Positions 1 to 63,841 of a stretch of DNA of 64,000 nt are shown piece by piece (the stretch's first letter is position 1; the number at the start of each line of letters is the position of its first letter). A model generated the notes under the pieces. That model had not been told where the DNA came from and made no database searches. It worked only from the letters and a program-made list of their open reading frames with translations. Source of the stretch: Candidatus Omnitrophota bacterium (GTDB lineage Bacteria; Omnitrophota; Gorgyraeia; Zapsychrales; Fredricksoniimonadaceae). The DNA lies in assembly GCA_963828495.1 (NCBI GenBank), contig CAWHFJ010000016.1, positions 85,353 through 149,352 of the forward strand, in the 5' to 3' direction. The position numbers and the translations under genes were made by a program.

Positions 1-1117
1 ATAAGCCCCGGGGTCGTCAGGGAACTCTTGGGTTATACCGGCATATGTCCCCCAGGCCGCATCATCATTTTTAAGTCCTTCCTGGGCTTGGGCCTTTAAA
101 AGCATCGCGGCAATCTTAATGTCACGATCAAGGCCCTTGGCTCCATTGGCCGCAGCCATCAGTTTGTCGAGGATCCCTAACGCCTCATCATTTTTATTCT
201 GCTTCAAGAACGCTTCAACAACGGATAAATGCAATCGAAAAAAAGCGGGATCTTGAAAATTGTCTTTAAATTGCTGATTATAAGAGACAATCAGCTTATC
301 TAACTGCTGGCTCTTTAAAAGGGAGGTAAACCAACGGGTCATGGCTTCCTTAAACACCGGCTTGGAAGGAAAATCAATGATGACCTGGTTAAATAACTTC
401 GCGGCCCCGGCATAGTCTTGCTGGTAAAAAAGCAACTGGGCCTGCTTCATCAGGATTTCCGCTTTGACATCGTCGCTATCGGCAAGACTGAATGCTTTTG
501 AGTATTTCTCCATGGCCTTGGCATAGTCCGCCAGGGTCGTCAAAACATTCCCCCACTGCAAATACGCTTGGGGAGTGTAGCCTCCGCTTGTCTGCACTTG
601 AGTGGCTTTTTCAAAATTAGCGACGGCCTGCCCAAAATTTTTCTGGGCCATAAAAACCTGTCCCAAATAAAAATACAAAGTCTGATAGAAAGGCGGCTCT
701 ACCATAGAGGCATCGACACTCGTCAGCTTGACTAAAGCCTCATCTTGTTTGCCTGTTAGATACAGGCATTGCCCCCACCTGAGGTAATCAAACCACTTTT
801 TTCTATCGTTAGGAAAACTTTTTGCGTATTGTTGATAAAAATCGATGGCCTTAGCATAACTTTTAAGAAAAAAATAACTATCACCGGCTCCCAGATAGGC
901 TTGCGGACAGAAAGGCGCTTTGAGGGTATTGCTGGATGAATTCCTCGAACTCGGATGCGGCCAGTTGATATTGTGATTTATTCAACAGCTGCTGGGCAAA
1001 ATCTATTTTTTCGCCCTCGTGAGTCAGCGCGGACTGGGCACGGGCCACGGGACAAAAAACTGTGCTTGTCACAAGCAGTGTCCCAAGCCCTATTCTTATG
1101 AAAAATGTGGATCTCAT
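1..1117 (-). pseudogene. TPR-repeat protein with N-terminal signal peptide, located downstream of ExbB/ExbD in a YbgF/CpoB-like position. The 3' end runs off the window. The frame is broken by an apparent 1-nt insertion near 904-915.
   Basis: ORF 881-1117 encodes a signal peptide (MRSTFFIRIGLGTLLVTSTVFCPVARA) followed by ...EEFIQQYPQSAF. The TPR helix continues one frame over as PQAYLGAGDSYFFLKSYAKAIDFYQQYAKSFP..., and that frame stays open from 903 to base 1 (own translation). Confidence 0.6.
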
Positions 1118-7343: not shown

Positions 7344-7832
7344 CGCTTGGCTCCCTCCTGACGGCCTTGAAAGAAATATTCTTTATTCTGTGCCTGTTCC
7401 CGTTTAAAAATATCATCCATAGCCTTGAATCCAGGATTCTTCTTTGATCTGTAAAAATGCGGAGACAACTCCCAGCATGTAGGTGTTTAAAAACATCTTC
7501 TGCTCGCCCACTGCTTGATGGGCACCCCTCAAATAAGAAAAAAGATCTGCCCCGCCTTTTTTAAGCTCGGATTGGAACCTCGCGTATTCACTTTCATACA
7601 AGCAAACCAAAATGTCCACTTGCCCTTCTTCAGGCAGAGGGGACAGGACACAAGCGCCAAACCGCACATAAGATTCTACAGAACCGCCGCGTTGGGCCAT
7701 GCCTTTGACTTCGGATTTCTTGACATGATAGCCGTCATGAAGCGCCGCTCTGGCGCACACTTCAGAGGCCGACAAGACGCCCTGGCCGCCTATCCCATAA
7801 AAAAGCACATTGGTGGTGTTTTTATTCTTCAT
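7340..7832 (-). pseudogene. iorB: Indolepyruvate:ferredoxin oxidoreductase subunit beta, frameshifted as assembled
   Basis: The N-terminus VLFYGIGGQGVLSASEV...MAQRGGSV is typical of IorB. The tail KAMDDIFKREQAQNKEYFFQGRQEGAKR* is in the adjacent frame, and its TGA overlaps the paaK ATG (ATGA). The junction is near 7421-7428. Confidence 0.8.
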
Positions 7833-7851
7833 GTCTTTAATCTTGTTAATC

Positions 7852-7907
7852 TTGGACCGTTTCCACCGGGGCCTTAGGGCCCCATCAAGTTACAACAGAA
7901 CTGTCCC
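7852..7907 (+). repeat. Plus-oriented, more diverged copy of the ~57-nt intergenic repeat. It forms the left arm of a 133-bp inverted-repeat unit.
   Basis: TTGGACCGTTTCCACCGGGGCCTTAG (7852-7877) is the reverse complement of 7959-7984 with 1 mismatch in 26. The inner part ...TTACAACAGAACTGTCCC resembles the TTAYGAYGGAAGTGTCCCC end of the other copies. Confidence 0.8.
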
Positions 7908-7927
7908 TTTTCTATTTTACCAGTCAT

Positions 7928-7984
7928 GGGGACACTTCCGTCATAAGTCTTTATTCTCCTAAGGCCCCGGTGGAAATGGTCCAA
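7928..7984 (-). repeat. Intergenic repeat copy A1 (minus-oriented). It overlaps the iorA stop codon.
   Basis: Minus strand: TTGGACCATTTCCACCGGGGCCTTAGGAGAATAAAGACTTATGACGGAAGTGTCCCC. Near-identical copies lie at 49757-49815 and 63776-63832. Confidence 0.85.
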
Positions 7985-9714
7985 AGGAAAGAGGCAAGAT
8001 GGCGTTGAGCTTGCATACCTTTGCACATAACTCACATCCAACGCACATCACCGGATCAATACTTAAATTGCCGTCTTTATCTTCCAAGATCGCCGGACAG
8101 TCTAGTTTCAGACACAAACCGCATTTTTTGCAAGCCCCCATGTCTATTTTAAATGGGGGTTTGCGTGAACGGTCGACAATTTTACAAGGATGCCGGGCAA
8201 TGATCACTGATAATTTATCTTCCTCCACCCTCGTCTTCAATAAGTTTCTCAAAACCCTCCATATCATAAGGATCAATAACATCGACACGATCAACATTGG
8301 CGGCTTTACATAAATCTTCTAAGGAAAGCTTCTTGGCCACCTTGCCCTGCAGGGTCACACCCGTCGTAGGATTGACCTGGGCACCGGTCATCGCCGTAAT
8401 GGCATTATCCATGATCACCACGACCCCTTTGGTATTGTTATAGGCGGCAGAAATAAGACCGCTTAAGCCCGTATGAATAAAAGTCGAATCTCCAATGACA
8501 GCAATGACCTTTTGATCCAAGGCCGTCTTACTGATCCCTTCAAAAAACGGCACGCTGGCCCCCATGCAAATTTGCGTATGTAAAGACGCCAGCGGCTCTA
8601 AGGCCCCCAGCGTATAGCAGCCGATATCCCCGGCGACGAAAAATCTGCATTTTTTCAACGTATGAAAAGCCGGCCGATGGGGACACCCCGGACAAAGCAA
8701 CGGCCGTCGGGCCTTCTGGGGACGATCATCCCGGTCACGGCCGGCCACAATGCGCTTGACGGCGTGCACACTTAACTCGCCACAGCGCCAAGAAGGTTTC
8801 TTGGCCGTCACCTTTATCCCTTCCTGCTTTAACTGCTCTTCTAAAAACGGCTCTAATTCTTCAATCACATAAAGCTTTTTGACTTTTTTCGCAAAGGCCT
8901 TGATTTTCTTAATCGGTAACGGAAACGACATACCCAGTGTCAGAATGGAGGCTTTAGGATAAGCTTCCCGGGTATAAAGAGCAGACACGCCGCTGACAAT
9001 AAATCCCATCTTCCGGTCTTTGATCTCTGCGCGATTTAATGCCGTATGCTCTGCATATGCCTTTAATCTCAACAGCCGCTTTTCCAAATCCACATGACGA
9101 AGACGGGCATGACCCGGAATCATCACGTACTTGGGAGGATTACTCTCCAAAGAACGCGTTGGCACGTCACGAGTAAGGTCAATTTCAAAAGATTCTTTAG
9201 TGTGAGAAATTCTGGTGGTGATGCGAAATAGCACGGGAATATCAAACTCTTCAGAGATGCGGTAGGCTTCTGCTATATAACGATAGGCCTCGAGAGGAGA
9301 AGAAGGCTCGATTAATGGGACCTTGGCATAAGGCGCTACCCTTCTGGTATCTTGTTCATTTTGTGATGAATACATACCCGGGTCATCCGCTACCACAACC
9401 AAAAACCCGGCATTGACTCCGCTATAGGCGGTGGTCATCAGCGGATCCATGGCCACGTTTAACCCTACGTGCTTAAAAGCTGTTAACGCTCTTTTACCGC
9501 CCAGACAAGCCCCGAAAGCCGCTTCATAGGCCACTTTTTCATTAACGGCCCACTGAGCTTCCAGGCCATCAAAAGTCCCCAGGGTTTCAAGAATTTCAGT
9601 GGAAGGTGTTCCGGGATATCCGGAAGCAAAACAAACACCAGCCACCTTCGCCCCCCAGGCAACAGCCTCATTCCCAGATAAGAATACAGTTTTCTTTTGA
9701 GTTGAATCAGACAT
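7959..9714 (-). pseudogene. iorA: Indolepyruvate:ferredoxin oxidoreductase subunit alpha (TPP- and 2x[4Fe-4S]-binding), frameshifted as assembled
   Basis: ORF 8215-9714 carries the pyrimidine-binding and TPP domains (GDIGCYTLG, GDSTFIHTG). ORF 7959-8297 carries the ferredoxin domain (CKKCGLCLKLDCP...CVGCELCAKVC). Removing one C from the CCC run at 8228-8230 gives ...EKLIEDEVEEDKLSVIIARHPC. The last 8 codons and the TAG stop lie inside repeat copy A1. Confidence 0.85.
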
Positions 9715-37431: not shown

Positions 37432-37542
37432 ATCTTATATATTATTATACCCCTCATTCTTTAGTTGCCCACAAATATCCAATAAAAATTTTTCCGTAAC
37501 TTATTCAGCCAGAAAGGGTAAATTCAATTATATAGGCAGGTT

Positions 37543-43103: not shown

Positions 43104-43147
43104 ATCAAACAAAAACCCTCCGCAACTTATTCAGCTGTGAAGGGTTT
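43104..43147 (-). terminator. Candidate intrinsic terminator downstream of tRNA-Ser
   Basis: Minus strand: AAACCCTTC-(17-nt loop)-GGAGGGTTT followed by TTTTGTTTG. The stem is 9 bp including one G-U pair. The loop is large, so confidence is modest. Confidence 0.4.
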
Positions 43148-43244
43148 CTTTAACTTTTAGGCTCATTTTGGGCACCAAGGATGATGCGGTCTTGGAATGA
43201 TTCTGTAACTTATTCTAGAGCAATAAGTTGTGAAGCATAAAAAA

Positions 43245-43336
43245 TGGCGGAGAAGGAGAGATTCGAACTCTCGAGACGCCTTTCGACGTCCACACGCTTT
43301 CCAGGCGTGCGCCTTAAACCACTCGGCCACCTCTCC
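43245..43336 (-). tRNA. tRNA-Ser (anticodon GGA), CCA-encoded, with a long variable arm
   Basis: Hand-folded. Acceptor GGAGAGG/CTTCTCC; anticodon stem-loop CACGC-CTGGAAA-GCGTG; variable arm TGGACGTCGAAAGGCGTCTC; T-arm GAGAG-TTCGAAT-CTCTC; discriminator G plus CCA. 92 nt. Confidence 0.9.
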
Positions 43337-48466: not shown

Positions 48467-49753
48467 AAATTGCAAAACCCTCTCATCCATCAAAATATGC
48501 CGCGGCAATAAAGGCTGCTTGAGAACAATACCCTCCAGCGTGGTGCAACGGCTTAAGGCCACATACATTTGCCCATGCGAAAAAGTCCCCCCGCCGACGT
48601 CGATCACGACCCTTTCAAAGGTCTGCCCCTGAGACTTATGAATGGTCACCGCCCAAGCTAACTTCAGCGGATATTGAGTAAAATAGCCGATCGTTTTAGA
48701 GGCCAGGGCATTGATCGCCTGGTCAAAATAATACTGATAAATGTCCCACGTGTGTTTTTTGACATCAACCAAATCACCGTTTTCCAATTCAACTTTGATC
48801 GACATCTTCACCTTCGCCATCGGACATAATGGCCACGATTTTCCCCAAAGAGCCGTTGACCCAGCGTTTTTCGGGATCATTGTTAAGCATCATCACCTGC
48901 GCGCCTAGTTTAAGTTCAAGGGCCTCCGGCGTGGGCAGGGATTTCCGTTCGAATTCACCGGATACCACCCCCTGATATATTTTCACGGGCCCGGATAAAT
49001 CTTCCAGATGCCTATTGTTGACTTTTTCAGCCAGGGCATTGGTCGTTGTCAAAACAATATAAAAATCACCCGACACCCATTGATGGTCAGGTTTAAAACG
49101 GCGGTTGAGGCTCTCCCAATGATGGTCCTGGAGATTGTCGTCCCTGACGGCGTTGAGCAGCCGGATAAAATGCTCATCTTTCTGACGGTAAATTTTCTTT
49201 AACTGGATGATCCTAAAATCCAGGAATTCAAAAACTTTGGCTGAAAAAAAGAATGGGGTCGGATAATGCGTCTTAAAAATATCCTCTTCCCCGCGCCCTA
49301 CCACCGGAGGCAGTTGAAACAAATCGCCAAAGAAAATCATCTGTACGCCGCCGAAAGGCCTCTCATCATAAGGCCCATAAAGACGCAAGAAAATATCCAC
49401 GCAATCCAAAAGGTCTGCCCGTACCATGGATACTTCGTCAATAATGACCGCCTCAAGCTGCTGGTACATTTTACGCCGGCGTTTGCGCACCGGTATATCA
49501 CCGACTGTTCAGGAGTCACATCGGGCTTAAACCCAAAGAACGAATGGATGGTTTGACCTTTAATATTAATGGCCGCAACACCCGTGGGAGCCAGAAAAGC
49601 CACCTTCTTGGCGGTTTTTTGACGGAAATACTGCAATAAAGTTGATTTTCCCGTACCCGCCTTACCGGTAATAAACATATGCTCACCGGTATGCTCCATG
49701 GCCTCAAAAGCCGCAACAAATTCTTCGTTAAAGTCCAGTTCAGCGAATTTCAT
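48463..49753 (-). pseudogene. Pif1/RecD-like P-loop DNA helicase, broken by two clear frameshifts. As assembled it reads in-frame into the next gene.
   Basis: FITGKAGTGKSTLL (Walker A), AFLAPTGVAAINIKGQTIHSFFG, VIIDEVSMV, FFGDLFQLPPV, ...AWAVTIHKSQGQTFERVVID...YVALSRCTTLEGI. The junctions are near 49493-49503 and 48797-48803. A -1 reading at the AAAA run 48474-48477 would give ...ERVCNL* with its TGA overlapping the next ATG. Confidence 0.8.
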
Positions 49754-49756
49754 ATA

Positions 49757-49815
49757 GGGGGACACTTCCGTCATAAGTCCTTATTTTCCTAGGGCCCAAT
49801 TGGAAACGGTCCAAG
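49757..49815 (-). repeat. Intergenic repeat copy B. It overlaps the menD stop and ends 3 nt before the helicase ATG.
   Basis: Minus strand: CTTGGACCGTTTCCAATTGGGCCCTAGGAAAATAAGGACTTATGACGGAAGTGTCCCCC. Confidence 0.85.
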
Positions 49816-51546
49816 ATAAAATGATTTAGGGCTTGGTGCACCTTGTGAATTTTCTGCCCTGCCGGTTATGACTTCAATGATCGTGGACGTTTGTGACTTA
49901 ACCGCCCTTGTATACACTTCTTTAAAATGCTTAACCGTCATCGGCTGATGATAGTTTAGCTCAAAGGCCGCCGCCGTGTTGGCAAAAGTAAAAGAATGCG
50001 GCACCCCGAAGAACTTTTCAAACCCTTCTTTAAATTCAGCGATAGGTAAAAAAGAAAATATGCCCGCCCCCCCGTTATTGAGGACCACGATAATTAAAGG
50101 ACAAGGCAAATCGCGTAACATCCCTAAAGAATTTAAATCATGCAAAGCCGCTAAATCACCGACCATCAGCGTCACGGGTTTTTCCAGTCCTCTCGAAAAT
50201 CCTGCGGCCGAAGCCACCAGCCCGTCGATACCACTGGCCCCGCGATTACCGTTGACAATAACCTCATGCCCCTTGAAATCCGCGTAAGAATCCATATCGC
50301 GGATGGGCATACTATTGGCCAAAAATAATCCCTGATGCCGAGGGACCAACTGGGACACCAAACGGGCAATGCCGGGCTCGCATAAATACTCCTCACTTTT
50401 AAAAAAATTTTCAATGGCCCTGTCAGCCGTCCCGTTGGCTTTGGACAATAATTTTTGCGCACCGGAAGGCTTACGCGATTTGATACGCCCGATGACACTC
50501 TTAATAAAATGGGTGACACTACTTTCTATACGCAAGGTGACCTGATGATTAGGGTCATTGCGCAAAGAATGGTTAAGTACCATGATATATTCTGCAGGAT
50601 TTTGTGCCTGAATAAATTCATAATAACGTTTAGAGGTGATGCGCCCGCCTAAATGAAGCACGCCATCAAATGACAATCGTCGGGAAATTTTATCGGATGA
50701 AAGCAGCTGATCAAAATAAGAAATGAGATTAGGGTGCCTCACCCCCAGCCGTAAGCCTGAGGCAATGTCCGCAAAAACCGGCCAGCCTGTTTTATCCGCC
50801 AAACGCAGTACCATTTGCCGCTCCTGGCCCCTCTCGATTTTACCGACGACAATCACGCCGTTTTTAATTTTCTCCAGACGCTCAACAACGCCCTGGGGAT
50901 GCGCCAAGCCCGCGGACTTAAAACCCGTAACATAACGCGTATAAGGCTCTGGGGATTTGACCCAGCGGTTGAGAGATTTTGTATAGCTTGCCAGGTCATC
51001 CCGGCCTTCAAGTAATGTCAACGGTGGACGAAACATGCAATTGATGTGCACTACCCCACGGTTGCGTGTGGCCTGATACCAGGCCTGGTCCATCGTAGTC
51101 AAAACAAACTGAGGGTTGATATGGGTGTCGGGACAAGGCATGTCGGTTGTCCACTCGGTGTATTTGCCGAAAATACCCACCTGATCAATGGTCTGTGCCG
51201 CCCCTGTCTGCCTTAATTCCGGCGGACGGTCAGCGGTTAAAACGATCAACGGGAGTTTTTTCTTGGAAGCTTCAATCACGGCCGGGAAAAAATTAGCCGC
51301 GGCCGTGCCGGACGTGCAAATGAGGACCGCCGGCTTTTCGGTTGCGGCAGCATAGCCCATGGCATGAAAGCTCAGTCCACGCTCATCGAAATGCACAAAA
51401 CTTTTGGCATTTTTATTCTGAGCCACGGCAATGACCAGAGGCGAACTGCGCGAGCCCGGCGCCACACAAAAATAATCCGCTCCCAGACGCGTTAGCTCCT
51501 CAACCATCAAACCGGCCCAACAGTGATTAATATTGACGAAAGTCAT
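49789..51546 (-). CDS. menD: SEPHCHC synthase MenD (TPP-dependent)
   Basis: N-terminus WAGLMVEELTRLGADYFCVAPGSRSSPL..., TSGTAAANFFPAVIEA, and the TPP motif GDLAALHDLNSL...NNGGAGIF. The last 8 codons (LGPFPIGP*) lie inside repeat copy B. Confidence 0.9.
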   Translation of the reverse strand: MTFVNINHCWAGLMVEELTRLGADYFCVAPGSRSSPLVIAVAQNKNAKSFVHFDERGLSFHAMGYAAATEKPAVLICTSGTAAANFFPAVIEASKKKLPLIVLTADRPPELRQTGAAQTIDQVGIFGKYTEWTTDMPCPDTHINPQFVLTTMDQAWYQATRNRGVVHINCMFRPPLTLLEGRDDLASYTKSLNRWVKSPEPYTRYVTGFKSAGLAHPQGVVERLEKIKNGVIVVGKIERGQERQMVLRLADKTGWPVFADIASGLRLGVRHPNLISYFDQLLSSDKISRRLSFDGVLHLGGRITSKRYYEFIQAQNPAEYIMVLNHSLRNDPNHQVTLRIESSVTHFIKSVIGRIKSRKPSGAQKLLSKANGTADRAIENFFKSEEYLCEPGIARLVSQLVPRHQGLFLANSMPIRDMDSYADFKGHEVIVNGNRGASGIDGLVASAAGFSRGLEKPVTLMVGDLAALHDLNSLGMLRDLPCPLIIVVLNNGGAGIFSFLPIAEFKEGFEKFFGVPHSFTFANTAAAFELNYHQPMTVKHFKEVYTRAVKSQTSTIIEVITGRAENSQGAPSPKSFYLGPFPIGP

Positions 51547-63775: not shown

Positions 63776-63832
63776 GGGGACACTTCCATCGTAACTCTAT
63801 ATTTTTCTAGGCCCCAAGTGGAAACGGTCCAA
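63776..63832 (-). repeat. Intergenic repeat copy C, in the prfA-prmC spacer
   Basis: Minus strand: TTGGACCGTTTCCACTTGGGGCCTAGAAAAATATAGAGTTACGATGGAAGTGTCCCC, ending 8 nt before the prmC ATG. Confidence 0.85.
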
Positions 63833-63841
63833 CAAAAGGGG

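Follow-up and report, generated by a model that had tools for sequence, protein, structure and literature searches.

A REP/REPIN-like repeat family of Omnitrophota and its association with a short RAYT-type tyrosine transposase

The window analyzed here, a 64-kb stretch of DNA from Candidatus Omnitrophota, contains four units of one short repeat family, all of them intergenic. Two are joined head to head as an inverted doublet, and the other two occur singly at distant loci (Table 1). The identities of the neighboring genes, assigned in the earlier note from the sequence alone, were confirmed with Pfam for the iorA-like (POR_N, TPP_enzyme_C and Fer4 domains), iorB-like (POR), MenD, Pif1-like helicase and PrmC products, and from its translation for prfA, which has its own TAA stop ahead of unit C. 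Nearly all genes of the window are located on the minus strand; in the mRNA sense, the sequence of units A2, B and C is therefore TT-GGACCGTTTCC...GGAAGTGTCCCC, with A1 inverted. The GC skew of the plus strand is uniformly negative, between -0.10 and -0.15, across positions 1-64000. Together with the minus-strand genes, this uniform skew places the whole window on one replichore, with its genes co-oriented with replication.

Table 1. Repeat units and associated features in the window, and the RAYT gene slot of related contigs.
Feature	Position	Strand	Remarks
REP-like unit A1	7852..7907	+	reads TT-GGACCGTTTCC...CAGAACTGTCCC; diverged doublet half; nhmmer E = 2.4e-11
Doublet spacer	7908..7927	.	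20 nt between inward-facing GTGTCCC ends; 21 nt counted between 54-nt cores
REP-like unit A2	7928..7984	-	reads TT-GGACCATTTCC...GGAAGTGTCCCC; nhmmer E = 1.6e-12
REPIN-like inverted doublet (A1 + spacer + A2)	7852..7984	.	between iorA-like and iorB-like genes; one long hairpin fold
TAG stop of iorA-like ORF	7959..7961	-	within unit A2, element position +22..24
Single REP-like unit B	49758..49814	-	occupies the menD/Pif1-like helicase gap entirely; nhmmer E = 1.1e-14
TAG closing the menD ORF as the window reads	49789..49791	-	inside unit B; hinges on one extra nucleotide compared with L023 and L125
Single REP-like unit C	63776..63832	-	prfA TAA 9 nt upstream, prmC ATG 8 nt downstream; nhmmer E = 4.3e-14
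ETF-RAYT-HTH-SMC slot	L009 669-4998; L046; L134 8679-14106; L136 8663-14164

A repeat search of the window returned direct copies at 7928-7989, 49758-49819 and 63776-63837 that are 84% identical to the reference copy, as well as two inverted arms (7852-7878 and 7958-7984) of 27 nt that are 96% complementary and have 79 nt between them. The diverged inner copy, A1, is 71% complementary to copy C over 56 nt and contains an internal hairpin, GGGGCC-TTAG-GGCCCC. The 14-mer TGGAAACGGTCCAA, with two mismatches or fewer, occurs four times against an expectation of 0.55, and none of 100 shuffles reached this number. A profile built from 162 non-identical family members (see below) found exactly four units, at E-values from 1e-14 to 2e-11, and no additional degenerate units below E = 2 over the whole window. 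These results bear out the dispersed repeat family that had been proposed for the three loci, along with the reading of the 133-bp element between the iorA-like and iorB-like genes as two inverted copies.

The family is not confined to the window. A scan of one genome per species with the pattern GGACACTTCC-N(30-40)-GGAAAYGGTCC gave eight matches with an identical 53-nt span in five MAGs, four of Candidatus Omnitrophota and one labelled Planctomycetales; four other matches, of differing spans and from unrelated phyla, were set aside as chance. A metagenome scan with the end motifs returned at least 120 stretches. At least 181 units were collected from genomes and metagenomes with a tolerant regular expression run over the retrieved DNA, so that the related MAGs, in which a count of copies had been suggested, do contain the element. 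Among the matches listed, 174 of 181 units are exactly 54 nt long, and the named hosts are all Candidatus Omnitrophota MAGs, bar the one labelled Planctomycetales. Units can be closely spaced, with at least 10 in 24.5 kb of contig Ga0101944_10001147 and at least eight on the 270-kb contig Ga0209749_1000035.

Each unit consists of GGACCGTTTCC, 32 variable nucleotides and GGAA[G/C]TGTCCC, forming a 54-nt core, or 57 nt with the flanking bases. The two conserved 11-nt ends show imperfect mutual complementarity, and both include a short GGA...TCC palindrome. The conservation of these ends is partly imposed by the search patterns; at positions that the search left unconstrained, conservation amounts to 96-98% for T37 and T38, 98% for C54, 86% for A31, about 80% for T15 and A16, and 67% for an A at -1. 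Positions -3 to 1 mostly read nTAG, with a G at -3 in only 12% of the units and TTG in the clade to which the window belongs, and TA adjoins the outer ends in most family members. The 32-nt core is wholly different between species and similar within a lineage, with the end sequences and the length constant throughout. The similarity of the cores within a lineage indicates copying, not independent conservation.

The window clade (loci L014, L030, L076, L081, L087, L098 and L124, and 7852-7907 of the window) comprises at least three core subtypes: alpha, beta, characterized by the internal GGGGCC-TTAG-GGCCCC hairpin, and gamma (AAATATCC...). Doublets of this clade mix subtypes, as alpha+beta or gamma+beta, and thereby recall the Y/Z heterodimers of E. 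coli BIMEs.

The arrangement of neighboring units follows a simple rule. Among the matches listed, 35 of 40 neighboring pairs are inverted with their GTGTCCC ends facing inward; 22 of these are short doublets and the remaining 13 are wide pairs, at 536-604 nt. The spacers of the 22 short doublets measure 2-4 nt in ten cases and 20-21 nt in nine, and the remaining three have 14, 31 and 52 nt. Within a doublet, the core similarity between the halves is no greater than that of random pairs (0.48 vs 0.47), so the doublets are heterodimers, and many of them cannot form the near-perfect hairpin of the window doublet; homodimers with a common core were rejected on the same comparison.

Contigs about 88-93% identical to the window allow loci A, B and C to be compared. 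L030 and L099 have retained the iorA-iorB doublet at their orthologous site, and unit B is kept as a single unit at the orthologous menD-helicase site in L023 and L125. A doublet 95.7% identical to that of the window is present in L124 between an SPFH-type gene and fumarase, a locus unrelated to iorAB, which agrees with the non-autonomous, mobile-element-like behavior ascribed to the repeat in the earlier note. At the ortholog of locus C in L087, a full doublet is found, versus the single unit that abuts prmC in the window; this difference is in keeping with the interpretation of single units as doublet remnants (PMC3116915). The near-identical doublet, the doublet/single polymorphism at locus C and the lack of target-site duplications described next are all compatible with mobility of the units.

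The earlier note had called the 133-bp element MITE-like, and a classical MITE moved by a DDE transposase (e.g. an IS630/Tc1-type enzyme acting at TA), with the 26-nt arms as its terminal inverted repeats, would account for the inverted termini, which match at 25 of 26 nt, and for the TA beside the outer ends of most members. Correia and other bacterial MITEs are also similar in their size of about 130 bp, their 26-nt inverted termini, their intergenic sites and their co-transcription with neighboring genes. However, no target-site duplication above chance was found for k = 2-8, with both boundary definitions, in 22 doublets and 96 single units, and no TA duplication or DDE partner was observed. 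The TT...AA flanks of the window clade lengthen the inverted repeat rather than constituting a direct duplication. Moreover, the doublet is made of two independent 54-nt units, single units are common, and the only genes ever observed between two units encode Y1 transposases. The missing duplications and the TT...AA flanks argue against a DDE-type MITE and fit a Y1 enzyme. The family is thus not a MITE in the DDE-transposase sense, a reading to which we give next to no weight.

A second alternative is that the unit is a structured cis-acting RNA or a small RNA, its terminal hairpin serving within the mRNA as, e.g., an attenuator, a leader or a signal for processing. Its ends can pair over 10 bp with one bulge, G-U pairs are confined to the GGACCG strand, and the three good copies of the window are all in the sense orientation. 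Folding, however, speaks against it. The single units, on the RNA sense strand, have z-scores of +0.25, +0.11 and -1.83 relative to shuffles, and as DNA, with both strands folded, they are no better than shuffles either (z of +0.6 to +0.8). The doublet 7852-7984 folds strongly, with an RNA MFE of -78.2 kcal/mol (z = -8.3) and z-scores of -9.9 and -8.9 as DNA. RNAalifold on 162 units predicts only a local hairpin of 4-5 bp, (A/T)GGA-CCGTT-TCC(T/A), whose closing pair -1:12 covaries (A-T in 84, T-A in 32).

As for the pairing between the two ends, mutual information over the 162 units shows a weak signal at 12:43 and 11:44, and at the proposed pair 7:48, 40% of the units have T opposite C, a mismatch. 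Pair 11:44 is C-G in 150 units, T-A in five, T-G in two and C-A in four, i.e. double changes accompanied by both intermediates, giving a small hint that the unit ends do pair. Since the ends were set by the search patterns, they cannot show covariation. The G-to-A difference that had been taken to support the hairpin is found in one of the 162 units.

Orientation was assessed in related contigs, where single units with genes on both sides are sense to co-directional genes in 24 cases and antisense in 23. The common orientation of the well-conserved copies relative to transcription, as described in the earlier note, therefore holds in the window and does not extend to its relatives. Such random orientation makes a strand-specific RNA role unlikely, and the three-for-three agreement in the window is a matter of chance. 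An Rfam search of the whole window at gathering scores yielded only a tRNA. In E-value mode, applied to two of the three loci, the doublet gave MIR1514, a plant miRNA precursor, at 34 bits versus a gathering score of 90, and unit B gave nothing. A promoter and terminator scan of 7600-8200 found neither. The unit is also tied to a transposase gene (see below), and the similarity of its cores within a lineage implies copying. Taken together, the family is not a structured RNA, and we consider it highly improbable that such a function explains it; a conserved single-unit hairpin as a functional RNA is not supported, the small hint at pair 11:44 notwithstanding.

The transposase gene is found in related contigs. 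In L009, an ORF of 163 aa is located between two inverted units. Its product matches Pfam Y1_Tnp with E = 2.9e-15 and scores 93 bits with NCBIfam model NF047646 (REP-associated tyrosine transposase), above the cut-off of 80; its sole PDB match is 4ER8, the E. coli TnpA-REP. A tblastn search with this protein identified 21 homologous stretches in loci that had been retrieved by DNA pattern alone. Among the matches listed, a homologue of 46-63% identity is located within every one of the 13 pairs whose gaps measure 536-604 nt, so that a transposase gene bounded by the same termini, for which the earlier note had advised a search, does exist in the relatives. The gene may stand in either orientation between its units. 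The homologues are 160-177 aa long, and the HUH histidines H60 and H62 as well as Y120 are invariant in 20 of them.

A protein search independent of the repeat returned 523 relatives with E <= 1e-10, several of which are named by their sources as 'REP element-mobilizing transposase RayT' or 'transposase [Candidatus Omnitrophota bacterium]'. Three contigs from this search were examined for units over 20 kb each. Good units flank the RAYT gene on both sides in L136, one good and one degenerate unit lie beside it in L134, and L132 has degenerate RAYT flanks plus one unit 850 nt away. As units occur only beside or near RAYT in these three loci, the dispersed population does not appear to be present in every genome with a RAYT gene.

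Four Omnitrophota species have the RAYT gene in a common slot, following a Fer4-ETF-alpha gene and followed by an HTH_17 gene and SMC (Table 1). Within this slot the RAYT proteins, at 63-71% identity, have changed far more rapidly than the products of the neighboring genes (about 85% for ETF). The persistence of one syntenic position despite this divergence of RAYT indicates vertical inheritance; vertical, single-locus behavior has been described for RAYTs (PMC5581495). Synteny is not universal and was rejected as a general feature, the slot being kept in one clade only and the neighborhoods of other clades being different. A tblastn search found no RAYT gene in the 64-kb window, and the RAYT link for the genome of the window therefore rests on its relatives. 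The nearest case is L121, where the flanking units carry the TT-GGACCG signature of the window clade.

In L129, two Y1 genes are located side by side (289-774 and 1026-1424), with products 60% and 37% identical to the L009 RAYT and with family units between and beside them. The second gene may represent a second, divergent RAYT with its own repeats.

The presence of a Y1 enzyme raises a third alternative, in which the units are remnants of a selfish IS200/IS605-type insertion sequence (PATE-like deletion derivatives), the 163-aa protein being a self-moving, multi-copy IS transposase and the doublets internally deleted copies. The protein does belong to the Y1_Tnp fold family, a gene with its two units resembles a compact element of about 0.7 kb, gene neighborhoods vary outside the one clade, and two Y1 genes are adjacent in L129. 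An HUH/Y1 enzyme and the lack of target-site duplication are common to our family and to IS200/IS605 with its gene-less PATEs, and a hairpin-guided, single-strand mechanism would be expected for both. However, the protein reaches only 29 bits with the IS200 NCBIfam model, below the cut-off of 55, while passing that of the RAYT model, and its conserved slot in four species points to vertical inheritance. IS200/IS605 elements have distinct left and right ends, which are not inverted repeats of each other, whereas the flanks here are whole inverted units between which the gene is free to take either orientation. The doublet spacers of 2-21 nt hold no gene remnant. On balance, an origin from such insertion sequences appears improbable.

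The affinities of the family lie instead with REP/REPIN-RAYT systems, the terms REPIN and RAYT being used as defined previously (PMC3116915, PMC5581495). As in E. coli (REP/BIME and TnpA-REP, 4ER8) and in the REPINs of Pseudomonas fluorescens (PMC3116915, PMC5581495, PMC3479197), the intergenic repeats are short and form inverted doublets, which fold into hairpins. Decay of doublets plausibly accounts for the single units, and RAYT is flanked by inverted units. Further similarities are the fixed neighborhood of RAYT, the lack of target duplication, and membership of the protein in the NCBIfam REP-associated tyrosine transposase family. There are also clear differences. The classical REP is a compact stem-loop of 20-40 nt, whereas the Omnitrophota unit has 54 nt, with 10 bp of end-to-end pairing around a 'loop' of 32 nt. 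The GTAG/CGTC tag of classical REPs (the Di Nocera super-families) is absent, the consensus being nTAG, or TT in the window clade. Unlike REP/REPIN doublets, those of Omnitrophota have unrelated half cores.

A closer counterpart is found in TIRtrons, in which RAYT-like genes (TIRYTs) lie between long inverted repeats that are not related to REPs of the GTAG type (PMC3733652). TIRtron repeats can also be dispersed as families of single units and dimers, and the sequence GGGGWSAS is common to some of them (PMC3733652). The ORF 1152 and 4509 families of Stenotrophomonas maltophilia K279a, for example, combine a bracketed RAYT-like gene with dispersed singles and dimers, as here. When compared letter by letter, the inner end of our unit, GGGGACAC / GGGGACAG, fits GGGGWSAS and may correspond to this motif.

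The protein comparison points in the same direction. In a BLASTP comparison with the sequences in Additional file 5 of PMC3733652, the Omnitrophota protein is 33-36% identical, with E = 1e-30 to 1e-33, to the TIRYTs sml 4509, dau 2153, gbm 2474, pfs 148A and sml 1152. Among canonical RAYTs, E. coli b228 scores E = 5e-9 and P. fluorescens 3939 E = 1e-11, and the E. coli RAYT/TnpA-REP is about 21% identical. These scores place the Omnitrophota protein closer to the TIRYTs than to canonical RAYTs. In contrast to TIRYTs, which have 216-238 aa and a C-terminal extension, the Omnitrophota protein has 163 aa and lacks the extension. The TIRtron survey does not include this host phylum (PMC3733652), and the strict 54-nt length with two conserved boxes is a feature of the Omnitrophota unit. 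Overall, the family most resembles the TIRtron/TIRYT variant described by Di Nocera et al. 2013 (PMC3733652). The earlier note had treated the element as novel, while stating that a match to a known REP, MITE or IS family would take this away; the family matches the known REP/RAYT kind, and most of the novelty is thereby removed.

We therefore consider that the four units of the window are, with a probability of about 85%, non-autonomous copies of a REP/REPIN-type family tied to a Y1 transposase of the RAYT/TIRYT class. By analogy with homologous systems, the units would be mobilized by a RAYT encoded once elsewhere in the genome and acting on the dispersed units in trans. The enzyme would recognize the folded unit ends on single-stranded DNA, and would cut and rejoin them without target duplication, like IS200/IS605 TnpA and E. 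coli TnpA-REP. Doublets could then spread through intergenic space, and single units would be the leftovers once one half of a doublet decays or is deleted. The copies in the window would be passengers with side effects, such as filling intergenic gaps and providing the iorA stop from A2. The doublet is expected to form a hairpin of about 60 bp in the transcript of iorA and iorB, and this hairpin could influence RNA stability or processing.

It is conceivable, albeit rather unlikely in our judgment, that a short Y1 transposase of the TIRYT class uses the 54-nt unit as a minimal two-ended substrate, whose ends each carry a small hairpin box and are kept a fixed distance apart; this would be a distinct architecture of RAYT substrate. 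If so, the unit would not be a palindromic REP at all.

To our knowledge, REP/RAYT systems have so far been studied almost entirely in Proteobacteria. The present family adds a well-populated example in an uncultivated phylum with small, tightly packed genomes. Our literature search found no published description of this family, nor of REP elements in Omnitrophota. The family opens no new class of system, but adds a previously undescribed member to a known kind of mobile repeat in bacteria. It may be convenient for biochemistry, with a very short enzyme of 163 aa and a fixed-length, two-box substrate.

The units also leave their mark on neighboring genes. Among 94 same-strand ORFs located upstream and at least 100 codons long, half (47) reach the unit without meeting a stop codon and terminate within it or at its first base. 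Within these 47, 16 end at a TAG formed by the flanking TA and the first G of the unit, 11 at a TAA at positions 15-17, and seven at the TAG at positions 22-24 of the window clade. Near its GGACCG end, the family carries stops in different frames. Possible explanations include insertion at or over stop codons, and selection for units that restore a stop. The iorA gene of the window ends in this manner in A2, and its intact 584-aa orthologue in L030 is arranged identically.

The menD gene illustrates how such ends can shift. An extra nucleotide at about 49845, absent from L023 and L125, changes the frame in the window, and the tail of MenD in L023, LDRFQDSLRKI, is read from the unit in another frame than that of the window gene. 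The named relatives of the MenD of the window belong only to Omnitrophota MAGs, which places the window in this phylum; its nearest database relative is 89% identical at the protein level. Most MenD relatives align over only 97% of the query, which fits tails derived from the repeat. For annotation, the units explain odd, lineage-specific C-terminal tails of some Omnitrophota genes, such as ...GPFPxGP or ...LDRFQ, as well as stop codons within repeats and intergenic spaces filled by a conserved 54-nt block. The idea that a unit supplies a Shine-Dalgarno sequence or start codon for the downstream gene was rejected: an ATG in unit B is in frame with the helicase, whereas those of A2 and C are not in frame with their downstream genes.

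Compared with close relatives, the window has several broken genes. Its iorA-like gene consists of two ORFs, 8215-9714 and 7959-8297 (overlap 8215-8297), versus an intact 584 aa in L030, and the Pif1-like helicase is split into three ORFs (breaks at 48789-48880 and 49337-49490), versus an intact 1086 aa in L023. The iorB-like ORF (7413-7832), with just 139 aa, spans half of the POR profile. The frameshifts of the window relative to its close relatives reflect either indel errors of the assembly or a decaying genome.

A second short repeat, GAATAAGTTRCRGA, occurs in the window in three minus-strand copies (37480-37519, 43106-43145 and 43202-43215), against 0.07 expected. Two copies lie within the loop of an ACCCT...AGGGT hairpin that is followed by a T-run, an arrangement resembling a terminator, and one copy adjoins a tRNA at 43248-43336.
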